Of a stretch of DNA of 64,000 nt, positions 4,111-62,876 are shown piece after piece; position 1 is the first letter of the stretch, and each line of letters opens with the position of its first letter. Below the pieces are notes generated by a model. That model made no database searches. It was not told where the DNA came from and saw only the letters and a list, made by a program, of their open reading frames with translations. The position numbers and the translations under genes are program-made. The stretch spans positions 1 to 64,000 of the forward strand of contig RSEE01000099.1 of assembly GCA_003971905.1 (NCBI GenBank), given 5' to 3'. The stretch comes from Moniliella sp. 'wahieum' (taxonomy: Eukaryota).

Positions 4111-6055
4111 ATGTAAGAGGCATTGGTGCCTCCATCTCCTACACTTTTTTCTCCCTGTGTACCCATCGCATCCATTTGATTTGTTGGCCGTTGACCAAAT
4201 GGTCCGCCCCCTTGGACTCTTGTTCTGTCCTCTTGCACTCTGTGGCTTTGTTTGGAGCCTGACGAAACGTGTAGTGACTGGATGGTTTGGACATTGTTCC
4301 CCGGGTAGTACTAGGGATTAGGTGATATTGAGGTCTAATATAGGGAGGGTGACGAACGGTGCGCTCAACCACGGAGCCGTTCTCGGTGGCCGAACATGGC
4401 GTCTTCTCGCACGTGTATCCGTTGAACTCAAAACAATTGTGGTTCATGCACCATCACCGTGACCTGGCGCGGTCATTGCCGTTATACTTTGAACCACCGG
4501 ATGCTCTTTGAAAACCCGACATGGGGCGTCAGTAACATCATAGTCGAGTATGCAACACACGGCAAGCTGTCCTACTCGGCTTGTATGGACCGTGTTGCAC
4601 GATGACAGAGCAAACCTCGGCGGTTCGGCACTGTTGGACGCCCTTAGGCCGTAATACCTCGGGCCTGCGGCTGAGGCCGTGCCGAGACGCATGAACAACA
4701 CCTTCACGTCCGTTTACTCTCGGTGCTGTAACCATATCGTTGACAGCAGAGCGTAAGGATGGGAAAGAGAAACGCTGCGCCTAGTGTAACCGACCTCATC
4801 CGGGATGTAGGAACAAAAATCGCAGTAGGCGCCGGAGTTGTCAGAAGTCTTTTTGGAATGTCCCTTCTCAGTTACTAAACGAAAGAAGGTGTGACGGGCG
4901 AACGCTGGCTAGCGGGCCAACGGAGCGCGCCGATCCCCTTCTAGTCCACCCCAAGCCCTTGATTCGTGCGAGCGAACGTTGGCAAGCGGGCCAGCGGAGC
5001 TTGTAACCCTCCCCCAAGTCCCAGAAGAGGCGATAATTGGCCGGCGGGCCAGCAGCGTCTCTCTACCCCCCCCGTTTCTTTGGCTCCCAAGATGGCTTTA
5101 TCTCGCACCCCGGCCGAACGAACGAAGGAGGGGCGTGCGATGAGATGAGACTTGGGCGTCTCCCCTCCTCTACTCGCCAATTGATTAATCCAGTACAGGC
5201 AACTGCTCCTCTTTTTAGTTGCTCTTCCAGCCCCCGTCGTCAGATCTCTACAGCCCCAGCCCAAGTCCAGCCCACAGTTCAGCCGCGTGTGATTCTGCCT
5301 ACAGCCCGCCCCCCAGTCTCAGTCCCCAGTCCCAGCCCAGCCTCAGTCGAGCAGCGTAGGTCCTCCGCTGCCTCCTCCCCGTCCCTTAACCCCCAGGCTT
5401 CAGACACGCTACTGCCGCCCAAGCCGGTGCTGCGCAGCCTTGCCACACTTGCAGCAGCCTCTGCTATACGCCGAGAGGCCTCTCCTTGTCCCTAGCTCCG
5501 CTCGGACCCACCAACCAGCCCAAGCGTGTAACTACCATGAGTCGACGTTACAATCTCCAAGGGATTGTACCCCTTAACCCCCCCGGGGCGGGCCCCCTGG
5601 TGGCGCCCGCGCCCATGACAGAAGGGTATCAGGGCGACATGGTGTAGCAATCACGGCCGGGCGATGTTGTTCGAGGATACTATAACGGGTGCCCCGTTGG
5701 AATTAGGGAAAAGGCGGACTGGAATGCTGTAGCATTTCTCCGGTTCCTACCTACTTACTCCTAAGTCACTGTACCAGTGTGGGTTACAATCGAAATCCGT
5801 TACCGCGGTTAGGCCGGTTACCGGTTACCGCTTATAAAAAGCACTAAAAGTGAAAAACTGCGCAAGCTAGGGTGTTGCGAGCGAACGAGGTGAGGTGTGG
5901 CTGAGGCCTGTGATGCATGTGAACGTTGGGAAACGGGCTGAAGTTGAGGCACCGGAAAGGGCGACGGAGAAAAGTTGGAAAAAGAAGTAGAGAGCTTATA
6001 TCGGGGCTTGGGGGCTGGAAAGGGCGTTTGCGTGGGAGGTTGCTTGGACACGGCG

Positions 6056-6295
6056 TGTTGGCCTAGGGAGCCGGACGGGCAGAAGGATGAGGAGAAGGTG
6101 ATGGATTGGAGCCAGAGTTGGGTCTGGGTACAGAGGCATCTATATAGGAGGCTGGACTAGGCACAGGGACAGTGAGTCACACAGGAGAGAGTGCAGGGCA
6201 CAGGGACAGTGACACGCAGGGACGTCAGCGTGGAAGCCGATGGAACCGAGGCGAACCTGGTCTACCGACTGGGAGCCAGAGGATCACAGTCAACA
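6056..6295 (-). repeat. LTR (3' LTR on minus strand), 240 bp
   Basis: Direct repeat of 7208-7446 with TG...CA ends and an internal TATATA. Confidence 0.92.
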
Positions 6296-7009
6296 CCCCC
6301 GCTGGCCAGGGAACCCGGAGACATCGGTTGTGGATGAGCTCCTGCCAGTGGATGTAGAGAGGGGAGGACTTGAGTGGCAACCGGGACGAATGGCCTGGAG
6401 TTGTGCATGGCCACACGACTGGCCTACACCCCCGCTGTCCAGGATGACACCTGAACGAGCCGAGCGCTTGTGGTTGGTGTATTGTGCGACCGCCAGATGC
6501 TTGTAGAAGTCTTAGAAGTAAAAAGTAGGGTTGCGCCCGAAGCGATTTGGTGGGCAAAGTAAAAAGCACCAGTTATAGGTGTAGTGAAAGAAAATTGGAA
6601 ACTTGGAGTAATGCGGTCCAAGGTCGTTTGGCATCAAAATTGGATGCGTTTGGTAGTTGTTTGGTTCCGCATGCCTGGTGCCAGTGGGGTCCATTGGGCA
6701 TGGGAAATGAACGGGCGCTATGCGTCAACCGTCTTGATCTGTTTGGGTTCTCTTTGTTGTTGAAAAAGAGGAGTGGAAGAAGTTGGGTGACCACCCCCCC
6801 CCATCCTTTCCCCAGGTGCCCGGATGAATTGGCAATCCGGGGCGTGTAGCCGTGGGTGGGGCACTTGATGAGCAGCCACCCCGCTTTCTGCGATTCGCCT
6901 GCGCCGTTTTGTCGTTGGAGGAATTTCGTCTCGTTGACGATACCCGACACGTTTTGTTCCGTCGTGTGTTGTCCCTAAAAATCATTGCCCCATCTGTGGG
7001 GGACGAGTG

Positions 7010-7086
7010 TGCCGATTGTGGCGGTAGTATGCCGATTGTGGCGGTAGTATGCCGATTGTGGCGGTAAGGTGCCGATTGTGGCGGTG
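7010..7086. repeat. 20-bp tandem repeat x~4 inside the LTR element
   Basis: TGCCGATTGTGGCGGTAGTA unit repeated at 7010, 7030, 7050 and 7070. Confidence 0.9.
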
Positions 7087-7207
7087 GTGTTGTTGGGCGG
7101 GAGGACGGGTGTGTCTTGTGGGCTTGGCGGCTTAGCTTGGGCTTGTAGGCTTGGGGGTGGGCTTGCTTGAAGAGCGCTCCCCTTCCGGGGGGATCAGATT
7201 GTAGCTC

Positions 7208-7446
7208 TGTTGGCCTAGGGAGCCGGACGGGCAGAAGGATGAGGAGAAGGTGATGGATTGGAGCCAGAGTTGGGTCTGGGTACAGAGGCATCTATATAGG
7301 AGGCTGACTAGGCACAGGGACAGTGAGTCACACAGGAGAGAGTGCAGGGCACAGGGACAGTGACACGCAGGGACGTCAGCGTGGAAGCCGATGGAACCGA
7401 GGCGAACCTGGTCTACCGACTGGGAGCCAGAGGATCACAGTCAACA
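7208..7446 (-). repeat. LTR (5' LTR on minus strand), 239 bp
   Basis: Only visible difference from the other LTR is one G (gctggact vs gctgact). Confidence 0.92.
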
Positions 7447-8202
7447 CGGCGAACGTGAACGTTGAACGTTGAACATGAATCAACGGTTCAGGGTTCTTCA
7501 GGCATCAGGTGCATCAGGCATCAGGAGCTCGGGCCCTCAGGCCTCAGGCACCTCTGTAAGCACTTTTGAGTCCAGACCAACAGGAAAAGGACGATGGCGC
7601 GATAGCCAGGTCTATCTATCGGTATACGTAGCGTGGGAAGCTACAGGACCTGGCAGGCAAGACCATCGACCATCGATCATCGATCAATTTGCCCGGAGAC
7701 TGCCGCCGAGCGAGAGAATTTTTGTCCGATCCCGCCGTCTGCCCCGCCGTACGGAGCAAACGAAGGGGACGTCTGCCATCGTTCGCAGCTCGACTGTTTC
7801 ATTAATTTCACGCTCTCCGGTGCTCTCCCCTGGCTTCTTCAAACTGCCAAGCAAGCCCTGAACCGGAAAGGTACGGAGGGTAGACTTTTATGCGCTGCCC
7901 GAACTCTGTAAAAGAAGGCACTTATGCAGCACGCCATCCCAGCTCGAGGCGGAATGGCTAATGGCAGGGGGAAGTGTACCCCCCAGCTGCGCCGGAAGCG
8001 AGGCCAGTGGAGAGTGCTGCGTCTGCGGGGGCTGGGAGGCAGGCTGGGTGCGGGACACGGATGGCGCTAGCATTTGCGATTGTTTTTTAGGGGGCATGGT
8101 TGCATGGTTGCGTGGTTGCCGTTTACGCGATCATGCATTGCATCACCGGCGACCAGCCGTCCTTTCCGCAATCAATTTATCAGCCAGCGCCCAGCCCCGG
8201 CA

Positions 8203-8376
8203 CGGTCACCGGTCACCGGCACCTCGTACATACAGGTGTGTGAAGAGGTGACACAGTGACTAGTGACCGGTGACCGGTGAGGCAACGCGTGGCGTCTGTC
8301 TATCAAGTCCAAATGCGTGCCCACTAGCCAAGAAGGCACAAGGTACTAGTCACTAGTCACTAGTCACTAGTCACTG
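8203..8376. repeat. 7-bp TNA+palindrome arrays
   Basis: GGTCACCGGTCACCGG; TGA-CTAG-TGA-CCGG-TGA-CCGG-TGA (8257-8280); ACTAG(TCACTAG)3TCA (8345-8373). Confidence 0.9.
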
Positions 8377-9334
8377 GTTCACTTGATAAACGATATCGCC
8401 GGCCACTGGCGCCTAGCCACAGCACTTCGGGGCAACATCCCGTCTCAATGCATCTCGCCGATGCTCGCTGCAGCACGGCGCCTGTGTTGCGCTAATCTGG
8501 ATGGGCGCGGGGAGCACTAGGCGTGTTTAGGTAGTGAGCGTTTTGGACGGATGCACACCCGGGGCAAACGGACAGTATGCGTCGCCTCTGCATGCTGGGA
8601 CGGGCGTGTGCCTGGCTTTGGGCTTTAGGGCCTTGGGGCTTTTGGACTTTGGGAAGGGCGATTGGCGCTTAGCCTAAGCGCTTAGCGCTTGCAGCTGGGA
8701 TACTGCTGCAGGCTGCCTCCTTGCCGGGACTGGGCAGCCAGGGTGCAGCGGCTGATAATGGGAGGCGCTGGGCCGCTGGGTCTGTGCACATACACGCGGG
8801 CCGCCCGACACGCGTGCCTGCTGCCTGCTGCACTTGGTGCTCGTGCTCGCGCTGCTTGTGCTGCCCCCGTGCGGCGCATGGCGCCACTGGCCACTGGCCC
8901 AGAGCCATCTCCCGCATAGTATTCTCCTGCATGCAGCAGGACCTCCTCGCGGCCGTCGCCAGCAGCAGCCCCGCTCGCATCTGCGTCGCCTCCTCCTGCC
9001 ACCACCACCACCCACCACCCCCCCTGCGCGACGCTTCCTCCGGCCTCCGCTCCCGCAGCACACCCGCCCCACATGCGTCCTGCGTACCCCCCCTGCATGG
9101 TGGCCATCCCGCCTACGCCCCCGTGAATCCGCCATGGCGCCTCCCCCGTTGCCATCGGCTTCTGCCGGCATGCCCAAGCGCCCTTCCGACCACCATCTCT
9201 CGCCCCCCACCCTCCACCCTCCCACCTCCCGCCCTCGCCTTCCCGCGGCTCCTCTCCACCCCAGCATGCGACCAATCGCCCGCGGCTACCGCCCCTGCGT
9301 GGCTTGTTCGATGCACCGTCGCCGTCAGGCTCCA

Positions 9335-10996: not shown

Positions 10997-12267
10997 CATG
11001 GTGGCACCGGACCGTGCTATCTAGCGTCCGCCAGCGCGAGGGCGACCGTCCCGAATTGGAACGAAGATGGTACCCCGTGCCCCCCGTACTGGTGGTTCTA
11101 TCTCTTGTCGTATTTTCTTCGCCGCCTGTGCTGAGCAGGGTGTGGCTCATCCCCCTTGGGGCTCTCTTGCCCCCCCACCCCCCCACCCCCACTTCCCCCC
11201 TTGTTCCGCCTTAGCCACTTCCTGCCCACTGATGTTTGTATTGTTACCGTTGTTGCTGTGGTGGCGCAGAGCGCGTCTGTTTGTTTTGTTCATACCTCCC
11301 TCGTTGCGATGCCTCCTATACATTTCCATTGCACTGGCAAGAAGCACCGGCTCTGGGATAGAGATACGCCGTGTAGGCCGTCCTACATGCTGCAAACGCA
11401 GCTGGGAGGAGTGGCATGCCTCGCCTGTAACTTGGGTTCGTCTGATGACAAGGTGACAGCTGACCGAGCTGCCATTACCGGTTACCGACGAAGCTGGAGG
11501 GACGTGTGCCGGAGGAGGATCTGATGGCGGAGAGGAGGTGTGCTGATATCGTGCCTCGTTACTAGTTACTAGAGTGGAGATCCGCGGTGAGCGCTGTCCA
11601 TGCGGCGGTACCGCGCCCATATAAAGCCAGCAATCAGAGGAGCATCTGACTGGCCGCGAACCATGCTACCGATAAATGGGACCAGAACGGCACCAGAGGC
11701 TAACTGGTACGCGGGGCGGGGCTACCCTTGCTCCCCTCGGTCTTGACCGTGCCCGTTTGAGGCCTCGATCAGATGTGCTTGTTCCAAGGCCGGCAGTCAT
11801 TCAAGTTCACCATGGCCCGGCGAGAGATCCTACGCAGCGATATAGACATGCGGGGGGAATGTTTGTTCCAGCCTGACTTGAGGAAGTCCCCCGCCTGGCG
11901 GATTGGGGCGCGCAGCACCCAAACGCTGGCGGAGTGAACTCTGCGCATCTGTTGCCCCGACGACTACGACAGGACCTCACGCGTACTAGTGCCAAAGAGG
12001 CTGACTAGTATGTCTGGGTCCACTGCACCCCGTACCATCCATCGGGCATAACGCGAATTGGGCGTACACCTCCAGATTGACCCGACTGCTCGCACATGCC
12101 AACCCATTCTGCTAGGCACATAAGCACCATAAGCGGTGCCCGGATTCGCCCAGTTCCTGCAACGACAGCTGGTGCGTGTAGCCCAGATCGAACACCAGAG
12201 GTAGCGGCGAGTGTATCCGCTAGGAGAGCATTGCTCTTGTTCTTTTTGTAATCCTGAGCAGGCATGT

Positions 12268-12365: not shown

Positions 12366-12765
12366 TCTTTTTGCATCATGGCGCAGATGGGGCATTTCAA
12401 CGTGGGATTGAGTGTCCGTTCGCTAAAATGCGTGGGTTCTCGTTCATGGCGCCGGTCAGCACCGTGGCGGCGGAAAACAAATAGGCACGAGGGTCTGAGT
12501 GCTGCTGAGGTCGAGATGTGAGAGTCTGAACGCAGGTGGAACCGATCCCGTGTAGGCACCCACTCGGCTGGGCATGGGTGCCTGAGGCCAGTGCAGGTGG
12601 CATATGCATGACCGGTGACCGGTGACCGGTGGCAGACGAGCGGAACTGGGGCTGTGGCGCCCGCGCTCGTACGTAATCCGTCCATTACTAATTTCACCCC
12701 CCCCCCCCCGTTGGAGCGCTGCAAGCCAGCTCACGCCGCTGCCCCTCCACCATCCTCCCGCGGCC

Positions 12766-15980: not shown

Positions 15981-16637
<657 letters not shown>

Positions 16638-17605
16638 ACGCGCGTTTGTTTCGATTGGGCAGCAGGCTGACAGGGCAAAAACGGGGCGCTCGGGGCAGAA
16701 ATGATGCTGATGCGGCTGGGCGCGGAGGGGGAAGACAACGAAGAGGGCACGGGGGCAGTCGCATCGTGGTCTTCCTCATCGGGCTCATCGGAGCTCCTGA
16801 CTAGCCTGACGAGACTGCTTTCCTTCCCGGGCTCGCTGTCGCATTCCGGCATCCAATTATCCAATCCCATCCCATCCCACCTGGCGGCTCTGCACTCTGG
16901 TTTGTTGGCCGACCTGGGGGCCGCCTTCTGACTCGCGCCGTGCCTGCTGCCGCTGCATCTCGTCCCAATGCGGTCGGGGGTTTTCATCCGCCTGCCTCAT
17001 GCGCGCACTGGGATAGATATCGAGACTCGCTCAGGATGTAATGATCGATGATCGCTCGCTCATCGACCCAGTCTCTCAGCCGTCTCAGCACAGTGGTTGC
17101 ATCAACGCGACAGCCCCACCCTAGGAGACCGCGTTGAACGCTTAATGCGTTTAATCAAGCCCGCAGCATGGCCACCGCGCAACGGCCAGTGTTGTGGAAG
17201 ATAGGGGAAGCAGGGATTCGGCCTAGCGAGGCATAGTCGGCCTAGTGCAGCTGTCTGATAGCCACAGTCTGGCCAGATTCATAACAGGCAACACAGCGGC
17301 CATGGAGGAGGGTAAGCCAGAAGGAGGAGGATGCCGATGGGGAAGGGCCCCCCAAATGCAGCGTGGGCAACCCCAAGTGTGCCCAGAGCTCCACCTTGGG
17401 TGCCGGCTAGCGTGGCACAAGTCTTCCCATGATGCAGTGACCTTGGGCGGTCGATGGGATGGCTGGCTGCCAGGCGGCCACGTCGTGAGAAAGAGCTTTT
17501 CGAAGGAAAGCGAGATTGCCTCCAGGAGGATATGCGTTCACACGTTCACACGTTCACATGACACAGCCGACCGCATGTGTCTCAAGCGGTGGGGGTTCGG
17601 CGGAC

Positions 17606-17666
17606 TCAGTACTCAGTACTCACAACTCACATGTCACATGTCACATGCCGCACGTTCAACGTTCAC
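17606..17666. repeat. 7-bp phased TCA array with changing cores
   Basis: TCA at 17606, 17613, 17620, 17627, 17634 and 17641 with spacers GTAC, GTAC, CAAC, CATG, CATG, CATG. Confidence 0.9.
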
Positions 17667-18154
17667 AAGCAGCCATCGGGTTCACAACTTGCCACCTCGG
17701 TGGTGCCGTGGCTACTGAGTCTCAGTTTTGCTGCTGGCCGCACTGAGTCACTAGTCACTGACGGACGGACAGGCAACCCTACCGCACCAGGACCGGCGGA
17801 AGGGTGCAACGCACTGATAAGCGGGTAGGGTTGGGGGCGTGCAAGTGGGACGGGCAGCTTACGTCACGCGTCACGGGGCAGGCGGCAGAAACAGGCCCGA
17901 AGGATGCGCCGACGGCGGGGCGGCGTGCGGCTTATTTGTTTGGAGCCGCCTTGGGGCGCAGGTGGCACCAACGCCAGACGACAATTTAATCGACAGCCAC
18001 AACCCCCGTCAGCAGCTTCAGCCCAGTGCCAGAAAATTTACACACCAACGCCGCCATGTGCAGCCCCGCGCCCGCGGCCAGCGCCAGCGTCAGCCCTGAG
18101 CCACAGCCGCCAGCGCAGCGGTAGGTGTCCGCACCTGCCCCACCCCCCACCCCC

Positions 18155-18226
18155 CACCACCACCACCCCACCACACCACCACCACCACCACCACCACCAC
18201 CACCATCACCGCCACCACCACCGCCA
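18155..18226 (+). repeat. (CAC/CCA)n microsatellite upstream of MFS gene
   Basis: Imperfect CCA trinucleotide run. Confidence 0.85.
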
Positions 18227-18250
18227 TCGCACCAGCCCCCACCTCCGTGC

Positions 18251-22798: not shown

Positions 22799-23195
22799 TT
22801 TGTCTCCTTTTCACACGCATATGTCATCTGTACTCGGTCCCCTCTCGGCTCCGTTCGTTGCTCTGCTAGCCTTTTGTCATTTGGACTCTTTGTTTCCTGT
22901 TGCGTGCATGTATCAGTTTTGGTTGACGCGTTGACGGTCCCAGTTGCGTATGGATATACAGGCCGCCCCACTTGGGTAGTGCACATGCACTGCGCTTGGT
23001 TCGTCCATGGAAGTTAATGGTCTGTGTGGATCCTGTCTGGACGTACCATAGTGGATCATGCCACGTCCTACGCCCATATCATTGACAAGCTGCTGGGGGA
23101 GATGGTGAGGTACAGAGAGAGAGAAGGAGTCCGTCGTCGACTTGGAACCATCTGCACCAAGGGGTGTACGTGCCTTTCCCGTGGGTAGACATGGA

Positions 23196-23290: not shown

Positions 23291-24836
23291 CTCCTTTTTT
23301 GGTACCCGACATCTAATTTTTTGGCACCGTACGCCCCCCGGCAAGTGCAGGCTGATTGGGCCTATGTCTTGGGCAGCAAGGCGCTGTTTGTTACATGGCC
23401 AGAGCGATCCTCTGCCTGGGGCTCGACCGAGTTATTGGGCCAACCCGGTCGGGGCTAGAGACGAGGTGTTGGCACCCACGTTTCCTTGCGCAGCGTCGAC
23501 TCGCATGGTGAGCTTGGTAGATGCGCCGGATCGGGCAAGACGATCAACGTATCTGTAGGCCGGCGGTGGCCCTAATACAAAGGGGGCTGAGCGGTTGGAC
23601 GCTGAATGTTGACAGGAACGGCGAAACAGGAGACGCCAGGCTCAGGACAGTACCGCAGGCAAAAGAGATCAACAAGACAATGAGTACAGTTGAGGCTGGA
23701 AGCTCTCATACATATGTGGAACGCTTGAAGCTACGAGAGGGCCAGAGGTTCAACGGTGTTGCCAGGACGAAAAAACGTTGACAAACTGGCATTGTCAAGA
23801 CTCCACGTCGACTGCATGGGCGAGGGCAAGAACATCAAAGAGGGGACCGGCAGGATCTATAACTCAGACGGCACAAACTGTACCAGGACGATGAGATGGA
23901 AAAGTAGCCATGATTTACACGAACGTACAGGGAGGCATCAGAATTTGGCCATCTCGCCTCCACGCCTCACGACCCCCCGCAGCTCAGACGAGCACGCGGG
24001 TAATGGGACGGGGGTGCCGGTCATCGGAAGGCGACATCGACCCCGAAGGGAAGGGCCTTTGCTCCTCACTGCTTAAGGGCGAGACGTACAAGAACCAAAG
24101 GATTCATCCTCTGCCCTGTAAGTTGTGGCTCAAAAATAGAGCTGGCCAGACTCGGAAGATAACTGTATGCACAGATTCTGCTGAGAATGGTCTTGGTATG
24201 CAGACAGGGAGCCACACACACGCCTTTTAACCCTGCCGGCACTGAAAAAAAAATGCCACGGCCTCCAGTCAAAAAAAAAAATGCGCACTAGGGTTGCGGG
24301 CACGCCTCAGCCTCCACAGTGCCCTCCTGCGGCCTCCACTGTGCCTCCACTGTGCCTGTAGTTCCGCTTGCCAAGGTGTCCAACTTAGATTCCGCCATCT
24401 TGAACATTTTCGAAAGGTCGACAGAACTCTAGTCTGATTCACCTGGCAGCCTCGATATTCAATCGATAGTAGCCTCGAAGGGCAATTTAAGCTTCAAATA
24501 CCTCTGGTAGCCGGTAACCGGTAACCAGTAACAATGCACTCAACTTGTGTTCAACGCTGGCCATGAGCATTGGCCCATCTCTCTCGACAGAACTGTTCGT
24601 CCGATGCTTACAGTGGGCTGTCCTCGTTGGTATTCCAGACCCGGGCATATATGGAGGAGGGGTGGGCCCGCAAGGATCAAACGTCTAGGAACATTGGGGC
24701 GCAGTTTCTAGTTACTAGTTATACGCCTAGTACACTACCACAACTACAAGGGTTCAAGGGGAAAACACAAGTGCAAAGCATGCAAATAGGCATTAGTATG
24801 ACAAAGGCACTGGGTCAGCGCGATCAATGGTGCAGC

Positions 24837-25912: not shown

Positions 25913-26457
25913 GGTGACTGAGGTGGGGCAGGTGCAGCGGCGGAGAACGAGGGGGAGAACGGTTGAGGTGGGCAGCGAAGAACAGGTGAGGGGCGGCGGC
26001 TTTATAGGAAGGTGCGGCGATGACGCGGGGCGCTGGACATGGCCTGTGCGCCCAGGCATCTTCTCAGCACGACCGGCATCGAAGCCAGGCCCCACTGCGC
26101 ACGAGGGCAGTGTGCCTGGGGCGCCCAGGGTGCGGCGATGACGCCGGGCGGCGGCAGGCGGCGGGATTGCACCGGTCAGTGGTCACGCGATCATCGCAGC
26201 AATTTGGACGCTGAGGTGGTGGGTGGTGGGTGATGCATGATGCAGGCGCATTCCATCACGCCATCCTCCCCCCGCCACGCCTGCTGGCCCTGGCCGCCGC
26301 AAGAGGGGCGGAGCGGATTGCGCTGCGTGCCGCCGCCATCGCCGCCGAGCGCCTCGGCCGCACCCCAGCAGATACGCCAGCGCCTCCGGGACAATTCGCC
26401 ACCCGAACAAGCGCCGCACCGTCCGACCGCTTCGGCTTGGCCTGTTCCACTCTGTAT

Positions 26458-27525
26458 TGAACGTTGAACGTTGAACGTTCAGTTGAACGTTTGAACGCAC
26501 TCACTCGAGCATGAAACTGATCGTCAACCTCACTGACCAGCCTGGCCGCCGGCGCCGCCGCTGCCTCCGCCAAGCATCCATATCTAATCTCCTCTCTCCC
26601 TCCAGTCCGGCCCAATCGCCGCCGCTTCGCCTCTGGGGACGGCAACAGGCCAGCATCCACCCCGTATCAACGTTGTTTCCTCCCTGGTCCGCTTGGCCCA
26701 TCGCCCATCGCCCATCGCCTATCGCCCATCTCCAGCTTCCAGCCAATCATTAATCAGCGCTCAGCCTGAGCCGCAATTCTCAGCCAGCTCAGCCACCTCG
26801 TCCGGGCTGTCACACATCCTTGGCCCTCATGTAGCCGCGCTCTCGTCGGCATCAGACTGATGTCCTCATACGTCCAGTACCATGCATCAGCGCTGAGGCT
26901 CAGCCACCATCCATCAGGTCAATGGGTGACGCGTGACGTGTGCATTGCACGTGGCCTGTAGTACTTAGTCACTAGTCAAGAGCTAGTCAAGCTCAAGCTT
27001 CAAGCTTCAAGTCACTATAGTCCCTAGAAACCACGAATAGTGATCCAGTGAGCTGGTAAGGGACCGCGGGAAGGATGGCACTCTTCCACACAGCATGCCA
27101 GTCCCCCAGCAAAACGTCGATAAGATCGATGGGCTCACGTCGTCGACGCAGAATGCGCATGACACAATCCATTTCACAAGCGACAAGGGGATTCCAATCG
27201 TGCCAGCATGCGCCTCCGAGGCGCCGTCGCAGGAGTCCGTCCAAGGCCGTTGCTGCCGTCGGTCGGTCTCGATGTTCACCCGTTCTATCCAACCCTTGAA
27301 GCTTGAAGCTTGAAGCCTGGTCGACAAACTCAATCAACGCTGCTGAGATGGGTATGCTGATGCAATTCCATGCGCAAAAGCTGACATTATTACCGGTTAC
27401 CGGTTACCAGCCATCCTGTGCTCCCAGGGTCGATCGGATCCGCTTCCTGCCCCAGCCTCTCTTCTCAGCTTTTCCGACAAAAAATCAGGTTCGCGCGGAC
27501 TGAGTACTCAGACTGAGTACTGACG
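26458..27525. repeat. Cluster of 7-bp TNA+palindrome arrays
   Basis: (TGAACGT)3TCA at 26458; TCAAGCT repeats ~26994; (TGAAGCT) at 27297-27316; (TTACCGG) at ~27390; TGAGTACTCA at ~27501. Confidence 0.85.
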
Positions 27526-28169
27526 AGATCGCCGATTGTATTGGGCATCAAAGGCTCACAGGCCAATGACTTCATGACTCCCAAAGCTTGAAGATCGACG
27601 AGCATCATCGACATGAATGATCACTAGATCAGTAGCATCACTGCGCCTCAGCGCTTAGGCGGTGCTTTCAGCATGAAACTAGTGCTAGCAGCTGCCCTTC
27701 CCACTATGATATACGCGCCCAGCCATGACCAAGCTAAGCTGGTGCCGAGGAGTACCGAGCCTCTGTGCTCACTACTTGCTGCGCACATGGAGCGCATGCA
27801 GTGCACCGAGCTCCTTGCCCTGCCATTGCGGCAACGATGGCTGCTCTTCAAGCGTGCCATGCTCCGCGTAGCCAACCCAAGAAAGCAAAACGAACGGCAC
27901 ATTTCGGGCTCCCCTGCGCGCGGGGATACATTACAGGTTCCAAATGCACAGTGGCAGCGTTCCAGTCCAAGGCATCCGAGGTGCCAAGGCGCACTGACCA
28001 AATTCGTGGTCCCGTAACAGGCCCCTCTCACGACCAGGTGGAAGGGTAGAATGAAAAGAGCGAGGTGAGGTGAGGTAGGAAAGGAGAGGAGAGGAGAGGA
28101 GGGGGAGGATGATCGATGACAGAGCCCCAGATGGCAGGTGCAGGTCACCAATCTCAAATCTCAATTCGA

Positions 28170-37616: not shown

Positions 37617-37719
37617 CACGTGTCGATGATAGATGGGTGGGTCGAATTGGCAGCATCGCGGGATTACGTACGGCTGCTGTCTCATCGGGGGTTGAAATTT
37701 GAAAGGTTCGTGTTTAACG

Positions 37720-39032: not shown

Positions 39033-40078
39033 AATGCTCCGACCACATTTATTTCGTTACACCAAACTTCTCACCACTTTTTTTTCTTCTTGTGTGCGAC
39101 GCAGTAGCCTTGGGTTGCGTCTTGAGCCTTCCACCATCATCAATTAGCTCCCTTTCACTTTCTTCTGGATGTACCAGCTCCCTGGTGCAATCCCGTATGC
39201 AGTCCTGCCTACTCCACCCCCTGGATCTCGCGCTTTGTATTCCACCGTGAGCTTTCTTCCAGATCAGGCCCTGTCATGGACTGCTGTCTGCTATGCCTCC
39301 CCCCCAGGCCCTGTTTCTACCCTCGCAAACAATGTTGTGAGTGGGTACCCTACATTTCCCTTCCTTGCCCCACCATGCTTTGCTTTACAGCGAGGAGCGT
39401 TACCTGCGACTGAGCCTCCCTCTAGTGCGCCGACAGTTCTCATTTTCGAGCTGGCGGGGGTTGATGCATGATGGATAAGCGGACCAGCTCGCTGTACTTG
39501 CCGTGCATCATGTTATACCTGCAATGCTTGTCATGTTCCCGGGCCTGGCTTTTGAACCATCGAGCGCTCAGGCTGAGCGCTGAGCCTCAGCACCTTGTCG
39601 GGAGGATCCCATGTCGGCGATATAGGGGAGAGAATACTGACAGTAGCCTTTCGGGCATTTCGTATCAATTCTTTGAGCAGGGGGGGTAGAAAGTGTACAT
39701 CCCCAACTACATTACAGCACCTTGCATTTGTTCCCCAGCGACCGGATAACCGCCCATATGCGATGCACAACTAATACAATGCGGGGAATAGAACTTTGGG
39801 AAGTAGTCAAGCTCTTGGCGCCTCTTCCATCTTCCCAAGCAGCATTGTACGGGGCCACCTAACAAAAAAGACCACATGTCGGGAGATGATCCACCCTACA
39901 GATCTTCCGAGCTCATGCACCCAGTGGTCATCATAGAACGGAATGAGCGTGGCGTAAGAATAAAAGCTTCGACGAAAAGTCGTTTTGGTTGGGTCGTATG
40001 CGTCAAGAGGGCCACCTCAAATGGACGGGCAAAGTACTAAGGTAAGCGAGGTACAATTCCCATTGTGGGGAAAATGTG

Positions 40079-40949: not shown

Positions 40950-41393
40950 CAGTCGCTCGACAACGAGGAGCAGGACGGAGAGGGACACGGGGCACACATG
41001 CTTATAGCCGCCTTGGGCGGCCAGTGGGGCACTTGCGACGGACAAAATGGCGCAACGTTGGGGTTTGGGGCGTTCCCAGTGCCGAGCGCTGAGTCTCGCA
41101 CTGCCGACCGAGTCACAGCGTGTCCGTGTCACTAGTCCCTGCCTTGTACACGCACAGGGGCCCAAAAAAATTAAAGTAGAGCCGAGCAGACGACGGAAAC
41201 ATCCGCCGCCATGACTGAACGTTCAAAGTTCAAACTGCGCTGTCGTGGCCACGACCGCCTGGAGAAGCAACGTAGGCTGCCAACGCGCTGGCGGCGCCCA
41301 AGGGCGGAAGCTTGAGGTGAGTGTTGCGTCGCCGCAACATCCACCGCCGCCCATCTTCAGCCGCCCGTCCCCGCGCTCCCTCCCCTCCCCAAC

Positions 41394-46234: not shown

Positions 46235-47378
46235 GCTCGGCAGAAAGAGCGGAAGGGTGGGGGGAAGGAGAGAAAGCGGGAGGGGAAGACAGCGGCCGAG
46301 GACGCAGACGGGCAGCTTTTGTACCAGCCGAGCGCAGGGCAGGGGAGGGCAGGTAGCATCCCTGCAGGGGGGGCGGCGAAGCCAAGCGTGACGCGTGATG
46401 CGAGCCGCGGCGGGGCAGTGGTGGCGCTTGGCCAGGGTTCGGTGTCTCACTGACGCAGCCCTCCGTCGAGAATCGGAGATCGGAGTACTGGGACTGCGTC
46501 GCAGGTCTGAGCAGCACACAGGCCAAGTGGCTCAGGGTGCCGAGCATGTTCGGTCTGGGCAACTGGCAACCCTGAGGCAACCCAGACACCCCCGCAGCCC
46601 CCCGGCCCCAGTGGGCTGAAGCGCTGAAGGATGATCGATGATCGATGAGCGTGTGACCGATGGATGTGACAGTGCCGAGGCGCCGGCGCTGCGCCAGGCT
46701 GCGCCACCCCGCGCCGCACACGGCAAGGGGCACACCACACCACACCACTGGCGGGTCGGAGAGCATCCACTCGGCCTCAGCGCATCAGCACATCAGCTGA
46801 GGGCTCGGCTGAGCTGAGCGTGTTGGGGACGTTGAGGCTCAGCGCCTCAGCGCGGTGCAAGACCAACAGAACACAGACCGGTCCTCTTGGCGCTGCGGCG
46901 CTGATGTGCTGATGTGCTGATGCATGATGCACGCACGATGCACGGAGGCTGCACTGATGCACTGGCGCCAATGATCGACGCTATCATCGATCATCGATCA
47001 ATATTCAATGCTGGAGCGACGACGATCGAAAGCAGGGGCGGGGGAACGTGGATATTGGATGGAAGTGGAGTGCGCTGAATATTGGATGGGCCGCCTGCTG
47101 CCGCTCGGCTGAGTGAATTTCGACGAGGGCATGCCGAGGCAGAGTCCACCCAACTGGGTCCGAGCCCCTGCGCCGTCTCCTCCATCCATCTGCACCGTGC
47201 GGGCTGGCTACATGCGGCTACAGAGCCCAGTGGCCGAGCAGCCTGCGCCCGTCTGTGTGAATACAAATGCATCTCACATCCCCCGCGTCCATCCCATGTC
47301 CAACACTATGCTCTCTGCTCCCTTCTCCCACAAGTCTCCCGTAAGCGCCGTAAGCACCAAGCATAAGCACATCACATG

Positions 47379-49166: not shown

Positions 49167-49240
49167 GAGGGAAAGGCGCGGAGCGCCGCCGCTTGGCCCA
49201 CAGCCGCTTTCGTCCCACCATTCATCTCTTCTGGCGCGCC

Positions 49241-52861: not shown

Positions 52862-53680
52862 AATGCGTCCTTTAAACCCGCGGAGACAAATCTTGCAGCC
52901 CCAGTAGCCCGCTCTAGTCTTCCACACAAGAATCTCATGCGATACTTTATAGATGTCTTCGCTTCATTGCCCACTTTGGGTACTGCACCATGAACCTTTG
53001 GAGGAGGTAAGGACGAATGCGTTTGCCTAGTTGTTTTACCCTACTATACAGAGAGTGGGCGCGGTGCGGTGTTGTGGTGAAAACGATGGGATCTGGGGCG
53101 AGAGGACGAAACGCACGCTAAACAATGGGCGCAGTTGCGGACGTACTAGTGTGTAGTCAATCACCGACGCGAGGGAAAGACAGATGCCATGGAGGGCGTG
53201 CAACAAGGCGACTAGCCACTGAACTGACTCTGGCTGGTCGAAGGACACATCCAATCAGACGCCTACAGTAACTGAATGTAGATAGCTTGGAATCGATAAC
53301 GCCCACACTTTGCTTCACAAACCGTCCCAGGGTTCCACGAGTGCTAACAACGGAACAGGCTCCAAGCAATGCAATGCCAAGTATCGTACAATGGCTCTAT
53401 GCGCGACAGACAAGATCACAGCAAACGCGTGTAGTGATCCGCGGGGAAATCAAATTCGAGTGCTGCGTCAAAAGCAGCTGGAGTTCTGGTAGTCGTTCAG
53501 TCGGAGCAAAGAGAGGGATGGCAGGAAGAATTGTGGCTCGAGGAAGGCGTGCAAGAATGAGGACAGAAGAGTGATCTGTGATAAAATGATTTAGAGAGGC
53601 ACACCTGCCTGTCCGGGTCAGACCCAACATGTATGCACCACATGGCCGGGGATGATCGATGACCTCTAACATTTCCGACT

Positions 53681-57021: not shown

Positions 57022-58872
57022 TGGGTGGAGAAAAGGTGAATGGAGAGGGGGGGGCACACTGCGCGCCGCGATGCAAACGCTTGCCAAGCGGGAGAGAAGC
57101 AATCGAGTCGAGGGATAGGCCCGTGGAAGTGGCGCAAATCCCGTGTCGACCTCGCCGAAGCCCCGCTTGCGTGCAGGAACGGGGCGGGGTGGGAGGTACC
57201 GGTGCGGGATTCATTGGTACCCTGGGGGGGAGAGGAGAGTGGGAGGGAGTGGGAGTGGGGCGGAGAGGGTGCAGGAGAGCAGGAGGAGCAAACGCTGCGG
57301 CTGAGAGACGATGGCACGTGCAGACAAAAAAAGAGGGATGGCAGTGTGCAAGCAGTGGGGTTGGGCCGGGCGGGGTGGCCTGGTGGCTCGTGTTGGGGAG
57401 GGGGCAGGAAGATGGAGGGGTGGTGGGGGAGCCGAGGGGTCAGTCCGCCTGCTGCTGCCTTGCATCATGGTACTGCTGGTACCCCCGCGCTAGTGGCATG
57501 CCACCCACCATGAGTTCATGCCGTTCAACATTCATGGCTGCGTATCGGACTAGGACTCACTAGTCATAGTCACTGCGCTGACGCTCACAGACAGAGTCAC
57601 TGCTGGTACTCACTAGTCAGATGGCCAGCACTCTCTCGTCGCTCCGTCTCATTGATACGGTCCACGCTGGGGCGAATGAGTCGATGATTTGGATGCTCAA
57701 TCAGTAATCAGCGACATTGGCAGACCTGGTGGGGATGGTCGATGGGCTGGATGGGCAGGATGGCCTGGGAGGGCTTGGGAGTGAAGGATCGATGATTGAG
57801 CGCTGACGTTTCAAACCCGACAGGTGTACTGGCCTAGTGCGCCTGAACAGAGGCACGGAGAGTTTGTATTTCATTTGTGCGTGCGCTGGGAGCGCTGAGC
57901 GCGCTGAGCCTCCGCGCTGAGAGGCGCCCAACGCCACGTGCAGGTGACCTTGAGACACCAGGTGTGACACGTGACTGTCACGGGACCCCATGCTGGCGCT
58001 GCTTGCGCTTGCGCGTGGATGCCGTGCGCCAGGCCGCGTCGTTGACATGTGGGCGCTGCTTCGTTTGAAATTGGATGGCGGTTTGCCGTCTGGAAATTTG
58101 ATACCGGGTAGTACGGCAGGGGCGGCATGCATGCTCTGCACCATGTACCGGCCGCCTGGACTCGCTACCCAGCCAGTCTCTCTGCCCTCGTTCTCGCGTC
58201 ATCGATCATCGATCATCGATCATCTCCGACGCGCAGAAACCCAACACACTATCCACCGCTCCACAGACACGGAACGCTGCAATGCAGCGTTGCATGGGGG
58301 CACAGCCTAGTAGCCGGTTTGAAGCAACGCTCGGTCCATACATGCCATCCATACACAGACCCCACCTCAATCGTTTCGCCCCGTCGCGCATAGTTTGGCC
58401 AAAAATCACCGGGCCTACCGCCGGGTCTGGCGGGGTCTGGCTACGTACGGCCGGAGGGTGGTACATGAGAGCACTGCGACGCCTTTGCAACGCCGGGAGA
58501 AGCGGCTGCGTCGGCTGCTGGAACAAGCAGAACGCGACAACAACGCCAAGTGCCACAGGGACGCACCCAAGCGCCATTTCCCCCTTGGGTTTTAACGGCG
58601 CGAGGAAACTACGCCACCAAGACGGCGGGCAAGATGCTTGGAAGAGCTGCAAGGAAACAACGTTTAACTACTGAGTCTCAGATCTCAATGGAGATGGTTC
58701 ACCGGGTTCACCGCTCGGATGTCTACCACGTTCATCCGTATCCACAAGCGCTACCTCGGGTATTATGGGGACGGATGGTGGGCACCAGAGGGTCCGGATC
58801 TCTTGACAATTCCCTGGTTCCTTAAACGGGGTTTTGGCGCTAACAAGCAACACACGCCGGATGAACGGGTCG

Positions 58873-59003
58873 GTTTAGGCGCACAGGGCTTCTTTGTCCC
58901 AGCCTCAATTAAGCTCTGTCAACGATATGGTTACGGTATATAGTTTAGGCGCAGCTTTCCTTGTCCCAGCCTTAAGCTCGGTCAATGATATGGTGACAGT
59001 ATA
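58873..59003. repeat. Imperfect ~65-bp tandem duplication
   Basis: GTTTAGGCGC...TTGTCCCAGCC..TTAAGCTC.GTCAA.GATATGGT.AC.GTATA at 58873 and 58943. Confidence 0.85.
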
Positions 59004-60445: not shown

Positions 60446-61436
60446 CTCGCCTCGGATAATGGACCTGGGGTTTTTGTTCCCCTTCATCGTTGTCGATTAT
60501 CACCGCGTAGCATGATGGTTACCCCTCCTGTCTTGCCCTTTTGGCCGTTACCCAAGGGGTCCAACCGTTGGGAGGTTTGAAGCATCGAGCTGCTCACAGC
60601 TAGCGGACCGAAACTTGAGTTATGCGTTGTGGCGGTGCCCTCGAGGCTAGTATAACCCTCCTTTCTTCCTCCGTTGTCTGCTTTCCAAAGCGATTGCTTC
60701 CTAGACTGTATGGATCATTTTTGGCCAATGTTTGACTGAAGAACACATTGATGTTATGTTTCTCCGATGCAATCGTAGATGGGGTGGCGCGCATACAGCT
60801 CATGGCTTGCGGCTTGGGGATACAGGCACATTTCTGCAATTTCTTTTACTGCACATGGCAAGGTACATATACAGGAAAGAAGTCGACATATCTGACCAAG
60901 ATGGAGGTGTATACCTATGCGAAAATGAGTTTTGTGAAAAGACGCTTCAGTTCCCTTGTCCGTGCTGTCCAATGTTTCCAGGCGGTAGACCGACATGAAT
61001 ATCCCTTTAACGCAGTATGGACAGGCTCAAAATATGACCTCCAGACTTCTTTCAACCCAAGACCTGAGGCTTCGGTATTTCCCCCTCCCCTACAGGCCAT
61101 ATATCTGGGCGCCGGCACACCCCCTATATAGTGGCTCTCCCACGTTGAACGGGGTCATGAGCAGACACAAGCCGGACAGATCGATCGTCAACAAGTCCAA
61201 TCGAGATGGCCGTGTTGACCGTTGCACGTCCGACGTTGACGTGATGCTGAAAGAGGTTGCTGAGAGCGTGATGGTTCTGCGATGCCAACCATGTGACCTA
61301 TAAAACCTCTTTGGCAAATATACGCTACTTCATTGTGGTCTTGTCAGCACTGCCCATTCAACACTTGATCATTGGACAAACAAGCATAAAAGTTTGAGAT
61401 AATTCGCTGGGTTTGCGGCCTTGACCAACGATGAAC

Positions 61437-62434
61437 TTATGTCGTCATCTCAACATAGACGTTCACAGTGTAGATGAAGCAAATGAAAAACGTAAAGCCC
61501 ACACCACGGTAGAGCGAAGCAGTTCCTTCCTCAGCCACCATCGTGCGGAGACAATCGACCAAGCCTGAATACATGGCACGCTGCGAATGCTGCCCAGCCG
61601 TGGTGGGCAGAACCAGGACCGAGCGCGGGGTGACGATGGTCTCGCCATTGCTCACGGTTTCCTCGGGCTCCGACCCAGTTTCGAGCCCTTGCACCGCGAG
61701 GCGGACAAGTGCCACCTCGAGGGGAGTAGCAAGTGCCATAAAGATAGCGAAGAGCGCAACAAAGCGTACTACCCCCAAGCGGTGACCCGGTAGCTTGGGC
61801 CGAAACCTAAGAAGACAACTGCACGCGGTCCGAGCGCAAGCAGAACCATATACAGCCAGTAGGCCGCCCAAAAGCCCGGTAGGGCATAGATGCGATAAAA
61901 CTTGGATGCACCCGGCAGCAGATCCGCCCACGTCGTACGCGGAGCCTTGCGATGGACAATCGCGCGCGCCCCTAGCACACGAAAGCCACGTCCCCGAGGA
62001 CAACCAAAACAAGGAAAACAACGAGGAAGAGGCAAGCAAAGATCAAATGTAGGGGGAGGTGAGCGAAACCAACTCAAGCACCCCCATTGCGACAAAGTAG
62101 TATGCGAATGCACCGGCAAAAGTGATCCATCCCCCGGCATAGAGTGCCCGCCACCCAGCGAGACGCTTGGCACGGCGTAGCATGCCCCATATCGTGGGTT
62201 GGCTTGTATAAGTAGGAGTGGGGTGTCCTCAGCGGGCAGGGCAACGCTCTGGGGCGCGTAGCTGGCGCGCGCACGGACCACGGAGCTGATCCACGGCTGG
62301 ACCAATCCCACGCCCAACCCCGTCGAAAGTGAAGCGGCCACCAGAACGGCAAGAATGTCACTGATAGTGCTACTATCGCCGTCGGCCGTGAAAGTCGTCG
62401 TCCCCAGAAGGGAGGGGAAGTTGATGAGGTCCAT
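61437..62434 (-). CDS. Mitochondrial carrier-domain protein (divergent, frameshifted)
   Basis: PLEVALVRLAVQ (PxD/ExxK/R motif) and YSGLVDCLRTMVAEEGTASLYRG. Confidence 0.7.
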
Positions 62435-62876
62435 CCTCCAGGTGGTGGTAGGTGGCGAACAGGCCTCAGGCCGTCTCCTGCCCCCTCTCAGATCTGGGTC
62501 TCAGGGGGCATGACATGTGACATGTGACAGCATGGTTACGCTGCGCTGTTGCGCGTTACACGCGTGACGTCATTCCATCCAATCATGCCCAACGCTACAC
62601 ATCGGTGATTAGTGCCTAGTTGCTAGTCGTGGGTCGTTGCCTGTGTTGCCGGGTGGAGGCTGGACGTCGGTGGACCGAAATCTGGCCTGCTTCCTGTGAC
62701 ATGTGACAGCGGCCGGTGCCAGTTGCGCTGGTAGGTGGGAATAACAACACAAACAAGCAGAATTGGTACACAATGTCGTCGGAGAGACGGGCGCGATGTC
62801 CGAGTTGGGCGCGGTTCCCTCCTCATCGATCATCCCCAAATCGTCGGCACTGCAGTCGCCCGTGCCACCTCATCCC

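Follow-up and report, generated by a model that had tools for sequence, protein, structure and literature searches.

Artemis opens DNA hairpins 2 bases from the tip. Coding joints of V(D)J recombination and the joints of Transib/RAG-like excision carry even palindromes of the last flank bases, with the border base unchanged; the inverted tract (P nucleotides) is usually 2 bases long, and a 4-base palindromic overhang serves as filler. Elements of the CMC/EnSpm-CACTA group have CA..TG ends, a Tnp2-type transposase, and a target duplication of 2-3 bp, or 2-5 bp across the wider clade. The Transib duplication is 5 bp, and lineages of the CMCT clade show 2-5 bp (PMC12730594). Excision footprints of Ac/Ds (hAT) are described in plants, budding yeast, and Candida albicans; they are heterogeneous, with 28 kinds in 128 events (PMC5873905). 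Fungal lineages with 7-bp duplications include hAT7 in rust fungi and Kyakuja, a lineage of the KDZ group in Agaricomycotina with CA..TG ends (Kojima 2025, PMC12730594).

We analyzed a 64-kb stretch of fungal DNA (positions 1 to 64,000 of contig RSEE01000099.1 of Moniliella sp. 'wahieum'; hereafter, the window), which carries many short 7-base arrays centered on T-N-A triplets. Their joints likewise show even palindromes of the flank bases with the border base unchanged and a usual inverted tract of 2 bases, and a 4-base palindromic overhang would again act as filler, although they vary much less than V(D)J joints do and recur in tandem arrays. This scar chemistry fits Transib/RAG relatives of the CMC/EnSpm-CACTA clade, while the putative duplication, 7 bp centered on T-N-A, differs from those of Transib and the CMCT lineages. 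As with Ac/Ds, the target duplication would be kept, with short deletions and palindromic insertions that arise via flank hairpins and end joining (PMC5873905). However, Ac/Ds scars center on the complement of the element-bordering base and involve an 8-bp duplication, whereas the joints here are of the even type and suggest 7 bp. We rejected this candidate, as Ac/Ds-type joints are at background (4 of 116 pairs versus 73 of the even type). The lineages hAT7 and Kyakuja share with our proposal a 7-bp duplication in basidiomycete fungi, and the passages describing them mention neither a T-N-A preference nor excision scars (PMC12730594). Neither element was found in the 64-kb window. The T-W-A target of PIF/Harbinger (mPing) has T and A two bases apart, as here, but its duplication is 3 bp and its repair is described as precise, whereas the joints here keep 7 duplicated bases (PMC4561436). 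Intergenic heptamer repeats of bacteria (Xanthomonas, Nostoc) share the 7-base period and the position between genes; as described, each genome has a single fixed G-rich unit that forms long arrays, without a flank-templated palindrome or a T-N-A rule, and the window here is fungal (PMC4692102). Our literature search found no published description of T-N-A 7-base palindromic arrays, nor any support for the intergenic TCACGAT/ATCGTGA repeats of Ustilago that the initial annotation had named.

Results

The 7-base T-N-A repeats are real and far above chance. We defined the rule word as xyTNA-y'x'-xyTNA, which joins a 5-base copy to 2 inverted bases, and found it at 51 loci in 64 kb, while 100 dinucleotide shuffles gave a mean of 0.26 and a maximum of 2. 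With a T.A core pair, the word occurs 100 times; with any other core pair, 1-9 times. The initial annotation had listed arrays of TNA plus a 4-nt palindrome at 20 coordinates, and a rule-conforming array lies at 20/20 of them. Its proposed comparison of palindromic with non-palindromic N4 also came out in its favor: 90 of 166 T.A-N4-T.A pairs have a palindromic N4, against shuffle means of 6.8 palindromic (maximum 13) out of 110.1. Among same-N TNA-N4-TNA pairs, 78/116 are palindromic, and eight other core pairs gave 3-8 palindromic out of 55-167. In the Tandem Repeats Finder output for the window, period-7 rows make up 45/122 by our own count. Among perfect arrays that reach 2.5 copies or more, 20 have period 7, against 9 with period 5, 6 with period 6, and 3 with period 8; 20 dinucleotide shuffles gave 0.0 such arrays at period 7. 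Of the perfect period-7 runs that are 14 nt or longer (n=57), 38 have an odd palindrome as their unit, and T-N-A is its center in 37 of these 38.

Array length is either 5+7k or 7k, with the phase fixed at the array ends: 12, 19, or 26 nt at 38 loci and 14, 21, or 28 nt at 10. The minimal 12-nt form (5 + 2 + 5) is the commonest, with 25 loci. Minimal scars with core TCGA lie at 7675-7686, 17042-17053, 28108-28119, 53651-53662, and 62823-62834; with CTAG at 11559-11570, 24710-24721, 26967-26978, and, around a TAA center, 31836-31847; and with CCGG at 11475-11486 and 37774-37785. The scar TGATGCATGATG, core TGCA, is found at 26231-26242, 31672-31683, 39462-39473, and 46918-46929. Other minimal scars have the cores ACGT (17654-17665), CGCG (26927-26938 and 46387-46398), GATC (32420-32431 and 58676-58687), GCGC (35993-36004, between predicted chitin-synthase exons), AATT (37693-37704), GTAC (37926-37937), and CATG (38104-38115).

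Arrays of at least three units occupy 18/51 loci. Three TGA sites are repeated around ACGT (7456-7474, 19 nt), CCGG (12609-12627, directly upstream of the NDUFA12 reading frame), AGCT (37801-37819 and 38196-38214), CGCG (38227-38245), and CATG (62511-62529). Three TCA sites surround GTAC (17604-17622), CATG (17627-17645), and AGCT (26993-27011), and four surround TCGA (58199-58224, 26 nt). Three TTA sites with core CCGG lie at 27390-27408. Whole 7-base units are doubled in GGTTACC (core CCGG, 5816-5829), CCTCAGG (GGCC, 7535-7548), GGTCACC (CCGG, 8204-8217), AGTCACT (17746-17759), CGTCACG (17862-17875), GGTAACC (CCGG, 24513-24526), GCTGAGC (GCGC, 39572-39585), and TGTGACA (62695-62708); CTTGAAG is present three times (AGCT, 27295-27315) and AGTCACT four times (CTAG, 8348-8375, also in the Tandem Repeats Finder output). 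Such whole-unit arrays, which have complementary flanks, account for 10/48 unmixed loci where 1 in 16 is expected. Cores are mixed at 3/51 loci. Four TGA sites are chained by CTAG, CCGG, and CCGG at 8255-8280, where one CCGG core is not templated by the present outer flank GG; TCA sites are chained by TCGA, TCGA, and ATAT at 46984-47009; two adjoining scars, with cores of TTAA type (AATCATT) and GCGC, lie at 26745-26765.

Rule loci use 14/16 possible cores (flanking dinucleotides), and the core is set by its neighbors. Where pairs stand isolated, the left or right flank is its template in 46 cases versus 5 with an unrelated palindrome. Of the same-N pairs (n=116), the fill has the left flank as its template in 19, the right one in 27, and both flanks in another 27, whereas 5 hold an unrelated palindrome and 3 a direct pq+xy join. 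The inverted flank bases y'x' stand beside xy in 100 words at 51 loci, and only on one side do the outermost 2 bases belong to the repeat. In 100/104 words, the central base is copied rather than complemented, so the unit is a direct duplication plus an inverted dinucleotide. In this main class, 5 of 7 bases are kept on one side.

A rarer series of joints keeps the intact 7-mer xyTNApq on both sides, joined directly or via 1, 2, 5, or 6 inverted bases. Direct joins begin at 7512, at 17618 (ACTCACA x2, 17618-17631, plus strand, linking two palindromic arrays), and at 41221 (GTTCAAA x2, 41221-41234, with non-palindromic flanks). Two inverted bases separate whole 7-mers at four loci: CATCAGG + TG + CATCAGG + CATCAGG at 7503-7525 (plus strand), a non-palindromic 7-mer present three times whose second joint is direct; GCTTACG + GC + GCTTACG at 47340-47355 (minus strand); GCTGAGC + GC + GCTGAGC at 57894-57909; and GGTGAAC + CC + GGTGAAC at 58697-58712 (minus strand). 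By our own arithmetic, a uniform random model expects about 0.03 of these. T.A-centered 7-mers make up 4/8 independent loci of this 7-mer + 2-inverted-base type (expected 1 in 16) and 3/3 of those with 5 or 6 inverted bases. The latter are GCTTAGC + 6 + GCTTAGC at 8667-8686 (plus strand), ACTGAGT + 6 + ACTGAGT, which runs into a minimal scar (27512-27523) within the locus 27499-27523, and GTTGAAC + 5 + GTTGAAC at 26470-26488. The last is the middle part of a composite (26458-26496) that starts with an array of core ACGT (26458-26476) and finishes with a period-8 joint (26482-26496). In these 5- or 6-base tracts, as at 8667, the central base is flipped inside the tract, matching the hairpin prediction.

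Period-8 joints are also seen in GTTCACA-C-GTTCACA-C-GTTCACA (17536-17558, plus strand; a 7-mer + 1 inverted base, or 6 + 2), in GCTGAAG-C-GCTGAAG (46615-46629), which adjoins an array of core TCGA (46630-46648; locus 46615-46648), and in the variants GTTGACG-C-GTTGACG (22922-22936) and GCTGAG + GC + GCTGAGC (46837-46851, minus strand). Several period-8 cases can be read in two ways, and similar joints of periods 8 and 9 also occur around 7-mers without a T.A center. Joints of period 10 or 11, with inverted bases from both flanks together, number 0 in the window.

We also checked the genomic setting using a home-made codon-usage scan, which assigns 37% of the window to coding DNA. On this map, which is crude and misses small exons, 50/51 rule loci are non-coding, the exception being 46387-46398; palindromic T.A-N4-T.A pairs number 4/26 within it versus 86/140 elsewhere. 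This avoidance of coding DNA, which the initial annotation had also noted, is as expected of 7-base insertions. The window has about 1,570 non-coding T.A sites, and the scars cluster in a few spacers (6 loci at 17.0-17.9 kb, 9 at 26.2-27.5 kb, and 7 at 37.7-38.25 kb). Many loci lie in spacers upstream of genes; those at 17.0-17.9 and 37.7-38.25 kb, for example, are between diverging predicted genes. A search of the 64-kb window for elements that have inverted ends and duplicate 3 to 10 bp turned up none, and a scan of 148 reading frames gave no transposase domain. The window also holds two 240-bp LTR copies, which are identical except at 1 base and are both free of scars.

Discussion

The rule, its T-N-A specificity, the templating of the core by its flanks, and the series of joints are features of the sequence itself. 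Because the two bases beside T-N-A are the template of the palindromic core, the arrays are best read as mutational scars. We think it probable that they were left by the excision of a cut-and-paste DNA transposon that is itself absent from the window; this agent, its hairpins, and the repair steps we infer from the scars alone. The whole-7-mer joints point to a 7-bp target-site duplication centered on T-N-A, the support for 7 rather than 5 duplicated bases being the direct, target-length duplication flanking the joint at about 10 loci. The inverted tracts point to hairpins that capped the flanks precisely at the border of the element, in the RAG/Transib style.

According to this model, the element would insert via a 7-bp staggered cut centered on T-N-A, so that xyTNApq is duplicated on either side. 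On excision, each flank would be closed as a hairpin precisely at the element border, and a host nuclease would nick the hairpin about 2 bases from its tip to leave a 4-base palindromic overhang, pqq'p' from the left flank and y'x'xy from the right. In the usual repair, one overhang would be trimmed back to the duplex while the other fills the gap. The two T-N-A triplets would then be separated by exactly 4 bases (period 7), and one flank would be the template of the core. In whole-unit arrays, whose flanks are complementary, the two overhangs would be cohesive. Rarer repairs would leave both 7-mers whole, joined directly or through inverted bases. Every scar would remake T-N-A targets, and repeat visits, possibly with later slippage, could build arrays of 3-4 units. 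Since arrays of at least three units are commoner than independent hits on T.A sites predict, some contribution must also come from ordinary slippage or from a preference for earlier scars. The excision model gives no account of why one overhang is always lost whole.

Breaks and repair at T-N-A without a mobile element, made by a domesticated transposase or another nuclease in open chromatin, would write the same scars if 7-bp staggered cuts or hairpin ends were sealed by end joining. This is rather unlikely. The clustering in a few spacers and the failure to find a transposon in 64 kb despite about 60 scars speak for it, but an exact 7-base duplication with inverted flank bases is the expected product of an insertion followed by hairpin excision, and filling in a single staggered cut yields only the direct duplication, the rarest class here (3/116). 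The initial annotation had offered a hairpin or template-switch mutational process; its hairpin direction was right though vague, while replication template switching was rejected, as the joints do not fit it and instead match a 7-bp target-site duplication whose flanks were capped by hairpins. We consider it improbable that the arrays are ordinary microsatellites whose hairpin-folding heptamers slip more in replication, so that palindromic units expand. Slippage would explain arrays of up to 4 copies, the excess of multi-unit arrays over independent events, and a mutated unit that is itself duplicated without T-N-A (GACCATC x2, 7661-7676). It needs a starting repeat, however, and the commonest form is a 12-nt partial unit with ends in fixed phase, its palindrome made from a non-palindromic site. 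It also expects any unit, with no fixed phase or flank relation, where 37/57 perfect runs follow one rule; it gives no reason for T.A over the equally foldable A.T, C.G, and G.C centers, and it would not predict inverted tracts that separate whole 7-mers, or a flip of the central base inside the long ones.

That the arrays are functional DNA, either binding arrays of a dimeric protein that recognizes T-N-A every 7 bp or selected cruciform-forming promoter elements, appears very unlikely. The non-coding position of nearly all loci, many of them upstream of genes, would suit such a role, yet coding sequence would lose 7-base insertions regardless. An abundant factor reading TNA-N4-TNA, as the initial annotation had suggested, finds no conserved recognition core among the 14 in use, and its site would be 10 nt where the smallest unit is 12; moreover, a core that is an inverted copy of the neighboring two bases, with the outermost 2 bases repeated on one side only, is not free and is not needed for a protein site. 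An assembly or base-calling artifact is scarcely credible: we found nothing in its favor, and the arrays, which avoid coding DNA, are exact and short, high in complexity, and of many kinds. At least 121 contigs from metagenomes also contain one 19-mer array of the window, and other cores are seen at additional rule loci on three eukaryote-like metagenome contigs.

T-N-A-centred arrays of period 7

The initial annotation had described short intergenic arrays whose unit is T-N-A followed by a 4-base palindrome (the core), and we found arrays at all of the coordinates that it gave as examples. Tandem Repeats Finder reported period 7 in 45 of its 122 rows for the window. With at least 2.5 perfect copies required, there were 20 arrays at period 7, 9 at period 5, 6 at period 6 and 3 at period 8; 20 dinucleotide shuffles gave no such period-7 array. 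Among the 57 perfect period-7 runs of at least 14 nt, 38 had a unit whose 7 bases are palindromic apart from an unconstrained central base, and the centre was T-N-A in 37 of these. Performing the count that the annotation had proposed, we obtained 166 occurrences of T.A-N4-T.A, of which 90 had a palindromic N4, compared to shuffle means of 110.1 and 6.8 (maximum 13 palindromic). T-N-A pairs sharing the same N were found 116 times at spacing 4, 78 times with a palindromic fill, vs 22-61 times at other spacings. For such same-N pairs, eight other core pairs gave 3-8 palindromic cases out of 55-167. The observation of T-N-A-centred 7-base arrays is confirmed.

The intervening bases follow a flank-templated rule

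The arrays obey the word xyTNA-y'x'-xyTNA, where x and y are the left flank bases and a prime marks the complement. Thus, five bases are copied directly, and the copies are separated by the reverse complement of the leading dinucleotide. The two strands of the window together hold 100 instances of this word, grouped into 51 loci of 12 nt or longer (rule loci). In comparison, 100 dinucleotide shuffles gave a mean of 0.26 rule loci and never more than 2, and the same word built around any other base pair occurs 1-9 times. Fourteen different xy dinucleotides are in use. In 100 of 104 words, both copies shared the central base, 88 of these having C or G there and 12 having A or T. Counted by locus, C/G exceeded A/T by 43 vs 8, the supply of triplets outside coding DNA being similar (1,150 vs 421).

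Rule loci with a single core were 12 nt (n = 25), 19 nt (n = 12), 26 nt (one pure case), 14 nt (n = 8), 21 nt (n = 1) or 28 nt (n = 1) long, and three loci contained mixed cores. From these lengths, an array runs from two bases before one T-N-A to the last T-N-A, or consists of whole units where both flanks chance to be complementary. A chain of TGA sites at 8255-8280 has the cores CTAG, CCGG and CCGG; the right flank now present, GG, predicts GGCC and does not account for the last of these, and the chain fits no simple order of events.

Joints between target copies favour a 7-base duplication

We then write the target as xyTNApq, with p and q as the right flank bases, and call the junction of two target copies a joint. 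The full 7-mer is doubled by direct joining at 7512, 17618 and 41221; the flanks are non-palindromic in all three cases, and the duplication is exactly 7 bases. Intact 7-mers are also linked through inverted flank bases: two at 7503, 47340, 57894 and 58697, five at 26470, and six at 8667 and 27499. The central base is complemented in all three of the longer tracts, which is what a folded-back opposite strand would give. Both kinds of joint lie side by side at 7503-7525, where three copies of a non-palindromic target (CATCAGG-TG-CATCAGG-CATCAGG) are connected by one joint with two inverted bases and one direct joint. Period-8 joints, which retain one extra flank base, are unambiguous at 17536/17544 and 46837, and three more allow two readings.

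By our arithmetic, a uniform random model would produce the '7 + 2 + 7' form about 0.03 times in the window. Around any 7-mer, we counted eight independent loci of this form, and four of the eight were T.A-centred vs 1 in 16 expected. Since other 7-mers form similar joints too, the 7-base step, with about ten loci behind it, stands less firmly than the rule. No joint in the window carried inverted bases from both flanks together (periods 10 and 11); we take only these zero counts from our full joint-class table, as its classes merge inside palindromic arrays and, for some dinucleotides, the 'complement' decoy is identical to the true rule. Judged from sequence, we favour a duplicated length of 7 bases rather than 5.

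A proposed hairpin-excision model and its alternatives

In our judgment, the best explanation, and a reasonably probable one, is that the arrays are scars left by repeated excision of a hairpin-forming element whose target duplication is 7 bp long and centred on T-N-A. The 7-base duplication and the inverted flank bases can be read in the DNA itself, and we infer every later step of the model. On insertion, the element would make a 7-bp stagger centred on T-N-A. On exit, both flanks would be sealed as hairpins precisely at the element border. Hairpin opening about two bases off the tip would leave each flank with a single-stranded palindromic end of 4 bases, behind which the duplex stops at T-N-A. 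If one end were trimmed to the duplex and the other served as filler, the product would be T-N-A, a 4-base palindrome and T-N-A, the main class. The 25 minimal loci are templated about equally by the left (11) and right (14) flanks. At a palindromic target, both overhangs would be cohesive; whole-unit arrays are over-represented, at 10 of the 48 unmixed loci vs 1 in 16 expected. Each scar would supply fresh T-N-A targets, and arrays would therefore grow by repeat visits. Because 18 of the 51 loci hold three or more T-N-A sites, slippage probably contributes to this growth as well.

A protein-read site and a mutational process of the hairpin or template-switch kind were the two origins put forward in the initial annotation. 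The binding-site reading found no support in our data, as the fill is templated by the flank and 14 cores are tolerated. In isolated pairs, the 4-base fill was derived from the left two bases in 19 cases and from the right two in 27, and just five palindromic fills were related to neither flank. A site read by a protein gives no reason for the one-sided extension of two bases past T-N-A, nor for so many cores. We dropped replication template switching, as its return step would have no microhomology to use. Slippage of a microsatellite, which we consider a probable contributor to array growth, does not explain how a 12-nt partial unit makes a palindrome from a non-palindromic site, and leaves the preference for T.A over other self-complementary centres unaccounted for.

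Other transposition schemes were also considered and set aside. A 3-bp TNA duplication is unable to yield a 4-base fill, and a 5-bp duplication with two inverted bases leaves the joints that retain pq unexplained. In Tc1/mariner-type scars, the fixed bases derive from the element ends.

Under the excision model, some recurrent sequences are worth recording. The 12-mer scar TGATGCATGATG is identical at four separate loci (26231, 31672, 39462 and 46918), GAT(C/G)ATC-type scars occur at eight loci, and the base directly before T-N-A is most often G (22 of 51 loci). The recurrent GAT-type scars and the preceding G suggest a weak target preference beyond T-N-A.

Candidate element families

RAG and Transib nick exactly at the element border, and the even palindromes in the window fit such border-exact nicking. 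According to PMC5873905, the palindromes of Ac/Ds (hAT) scars have at their centre the complement of the base that borders the element; in the window, joints of that form are at background level (4 of 116), compared to 73 of the even type. PMC12730594 places Transib and EnSpm/CACTA in one clade, with duplications said to be 2-5 bp, and attributes duplications of 7 bp to hAT7 (rust fungi) and Kyakuja (mushrooms). PMC12810828 gives 3-bp duplications for the Cryptococcus CACTA element CNIRT6 and 4-8 bp for KDZ elements.

Scanning the window for inverted 10-mers with 3- to 10-bp duplications, for CACTG/CTCACTG ends and for NNTNANN 7-mer pairs with inverted ends returned array artefacts and no element. 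Pfam detected no transposase domain in the window's 148 reading frames (31 + 117), and no NNTNANN pairs with inverted ends were seen in 121 metagenome loci among the matches listed. The sequence CTCACTG-G-CTCACTG lies at 36056-36070, inside the chitin-synthase gene region; CTCACTG occurs nine times on the + strand and four times on the - strand (about four expected on each). This pair of copies may be coincidental. In our literature search, neither heptamer scars centred on T-N-A nor the Ustilago heptamer repeat mentioned in the initial annotation turned up; the actual hAT7 and Kyakuja duplications, shown in the figures and supplements of PMC12730594, may be informative about the target motif. 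We propose only tentatively, and consider it rather doubtful, that a very active, hitherto undescribed cut-and-paste family, possibly an EnSpm/Transib relative with a 7-bp NN-TNA-NN target, wrote tens of thousands of non-coding scars. Such a relative would widen the known range of target duplications.

Matches in metagenome contigs

One 19-nt array of the window was found in at least 121 metagenome contigs. Among the matches listed (80 loci with flanks, 435.6 kb), we counted 22 further rule loci with other cores; mononucleotide shuffles gave 2-5, and decoy centres 3-12. Bacterial-looking contigs held 8 of these loci in 193 kb and eukaryotic-looking contigs 13 in 181 kb; among the matches listed, they concentrate in L001 (4), L072 (3) and L068 (2), all eukaryotic-looking. 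Because the bacterial-looking contigs share the excess, these counts no more than hint that the scar process also occurs outside the window's genome; L001, L072 and L068 may carry the same signature in other fungi. Long degenerate intergenic arrays of the query heptamer, with the units CTTGAAG, CTTGAGG and CCTTAGG, are present in L051 and L034, which have bacterial-type genes, and in L007, which has a WHEP-TRS aminoacyl-tRNA synthetase frame. These are of the known heptamer-repeat kind with one unit per locus, unlike the flank-templated rule of the window.

Distribution of the scars and neighboring features

The window is fungal nuclear DNA of about 59% G+C, with intron-split frames for chitin synthase, MutS, a RabGAP, aldehyde dehydrogenase, NCBP3, NDUFA12, IGPD, SURF4 and a mitochondrial carrier. 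A protein atlas labelled the chitin synthase as fungal, with no finer taxonomic level. Coding DNA was mapped by a crude codon-usage scan, which covers 37% of the window and misses small exons; GC3 bias was dropped as a gene finder as it missed known genes. Fifty of the 51 rule loci fall outside this map, at a density of about 1.3 per kb. They cluster in a gene-poor stretch (4 loci in 4-8 kb, 5 in 8-12 kb), between predicted genes pointing apart (6 in 17.0-17.9 kb, 7 in 37.7-38.25 kb), and at 26.2-27.5 kb (9), 46.4-47.0 kb (4) and 62.5-62.8 kb (3). None was found in 40-44 kb or 48-52 kb, and 52-60 kb held three. We read this distribution, on rough gene models, as a lean toward upstream spacers.

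Elsewhere, transposon scars tend to be rare and diverse and are difficult to spot; the type seen here is uniform and frequent enough to be read directly from the genome. If the excision model is true, the scars would form an archive of past transposition even where the element is gone or rare, and a natural read-out of hairpin opening and joining in this fungus. It would also give a concrete route from mobile elements to short tandem repeats and palindromic promoter motifs. Under the tentative proposal of a very active, undescribed family, each scar would create tandem 6-bp palindromes of the form A-NNNN-T, mostly in spacers upstream of genes. This would mean a steady supply of new microsatellites and of new sites for dimeric DNA-binding proteins, such as ACGCGT at 38227 and AACGTT at 7456.

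A CCA/CCACCA trinucleotide-rich tract (18140-18243) and its GGT-rich inverse (16386-16466) form an inverted repeat 1.7 kb apart with 70-77% complementarity, and both are probably part of, or adjacent to, low-complexity coding sequence.

An LTR element of 1.39 kb occupies 6056-7446 and has no heptamer scar inside. Its LTRs (6056-6295 and 7208-7446) are 240-bp direct repeats with TG...CA ends that differ at one base, and the 5-bp duplication CGGCG flanks the element at 6051-6055 and 7447-7451. An interior of about 910 bp with no Pfam match makes it likely that the element is non-autonomous and young. Inside it, a 20-bp tandem repeat (AGTATGCCGATTGTGGCGGT) is present in four copies at 7006-7085, and each LTR contains an 18-bp periodic stretch (6162-6223 and 7313-7374).
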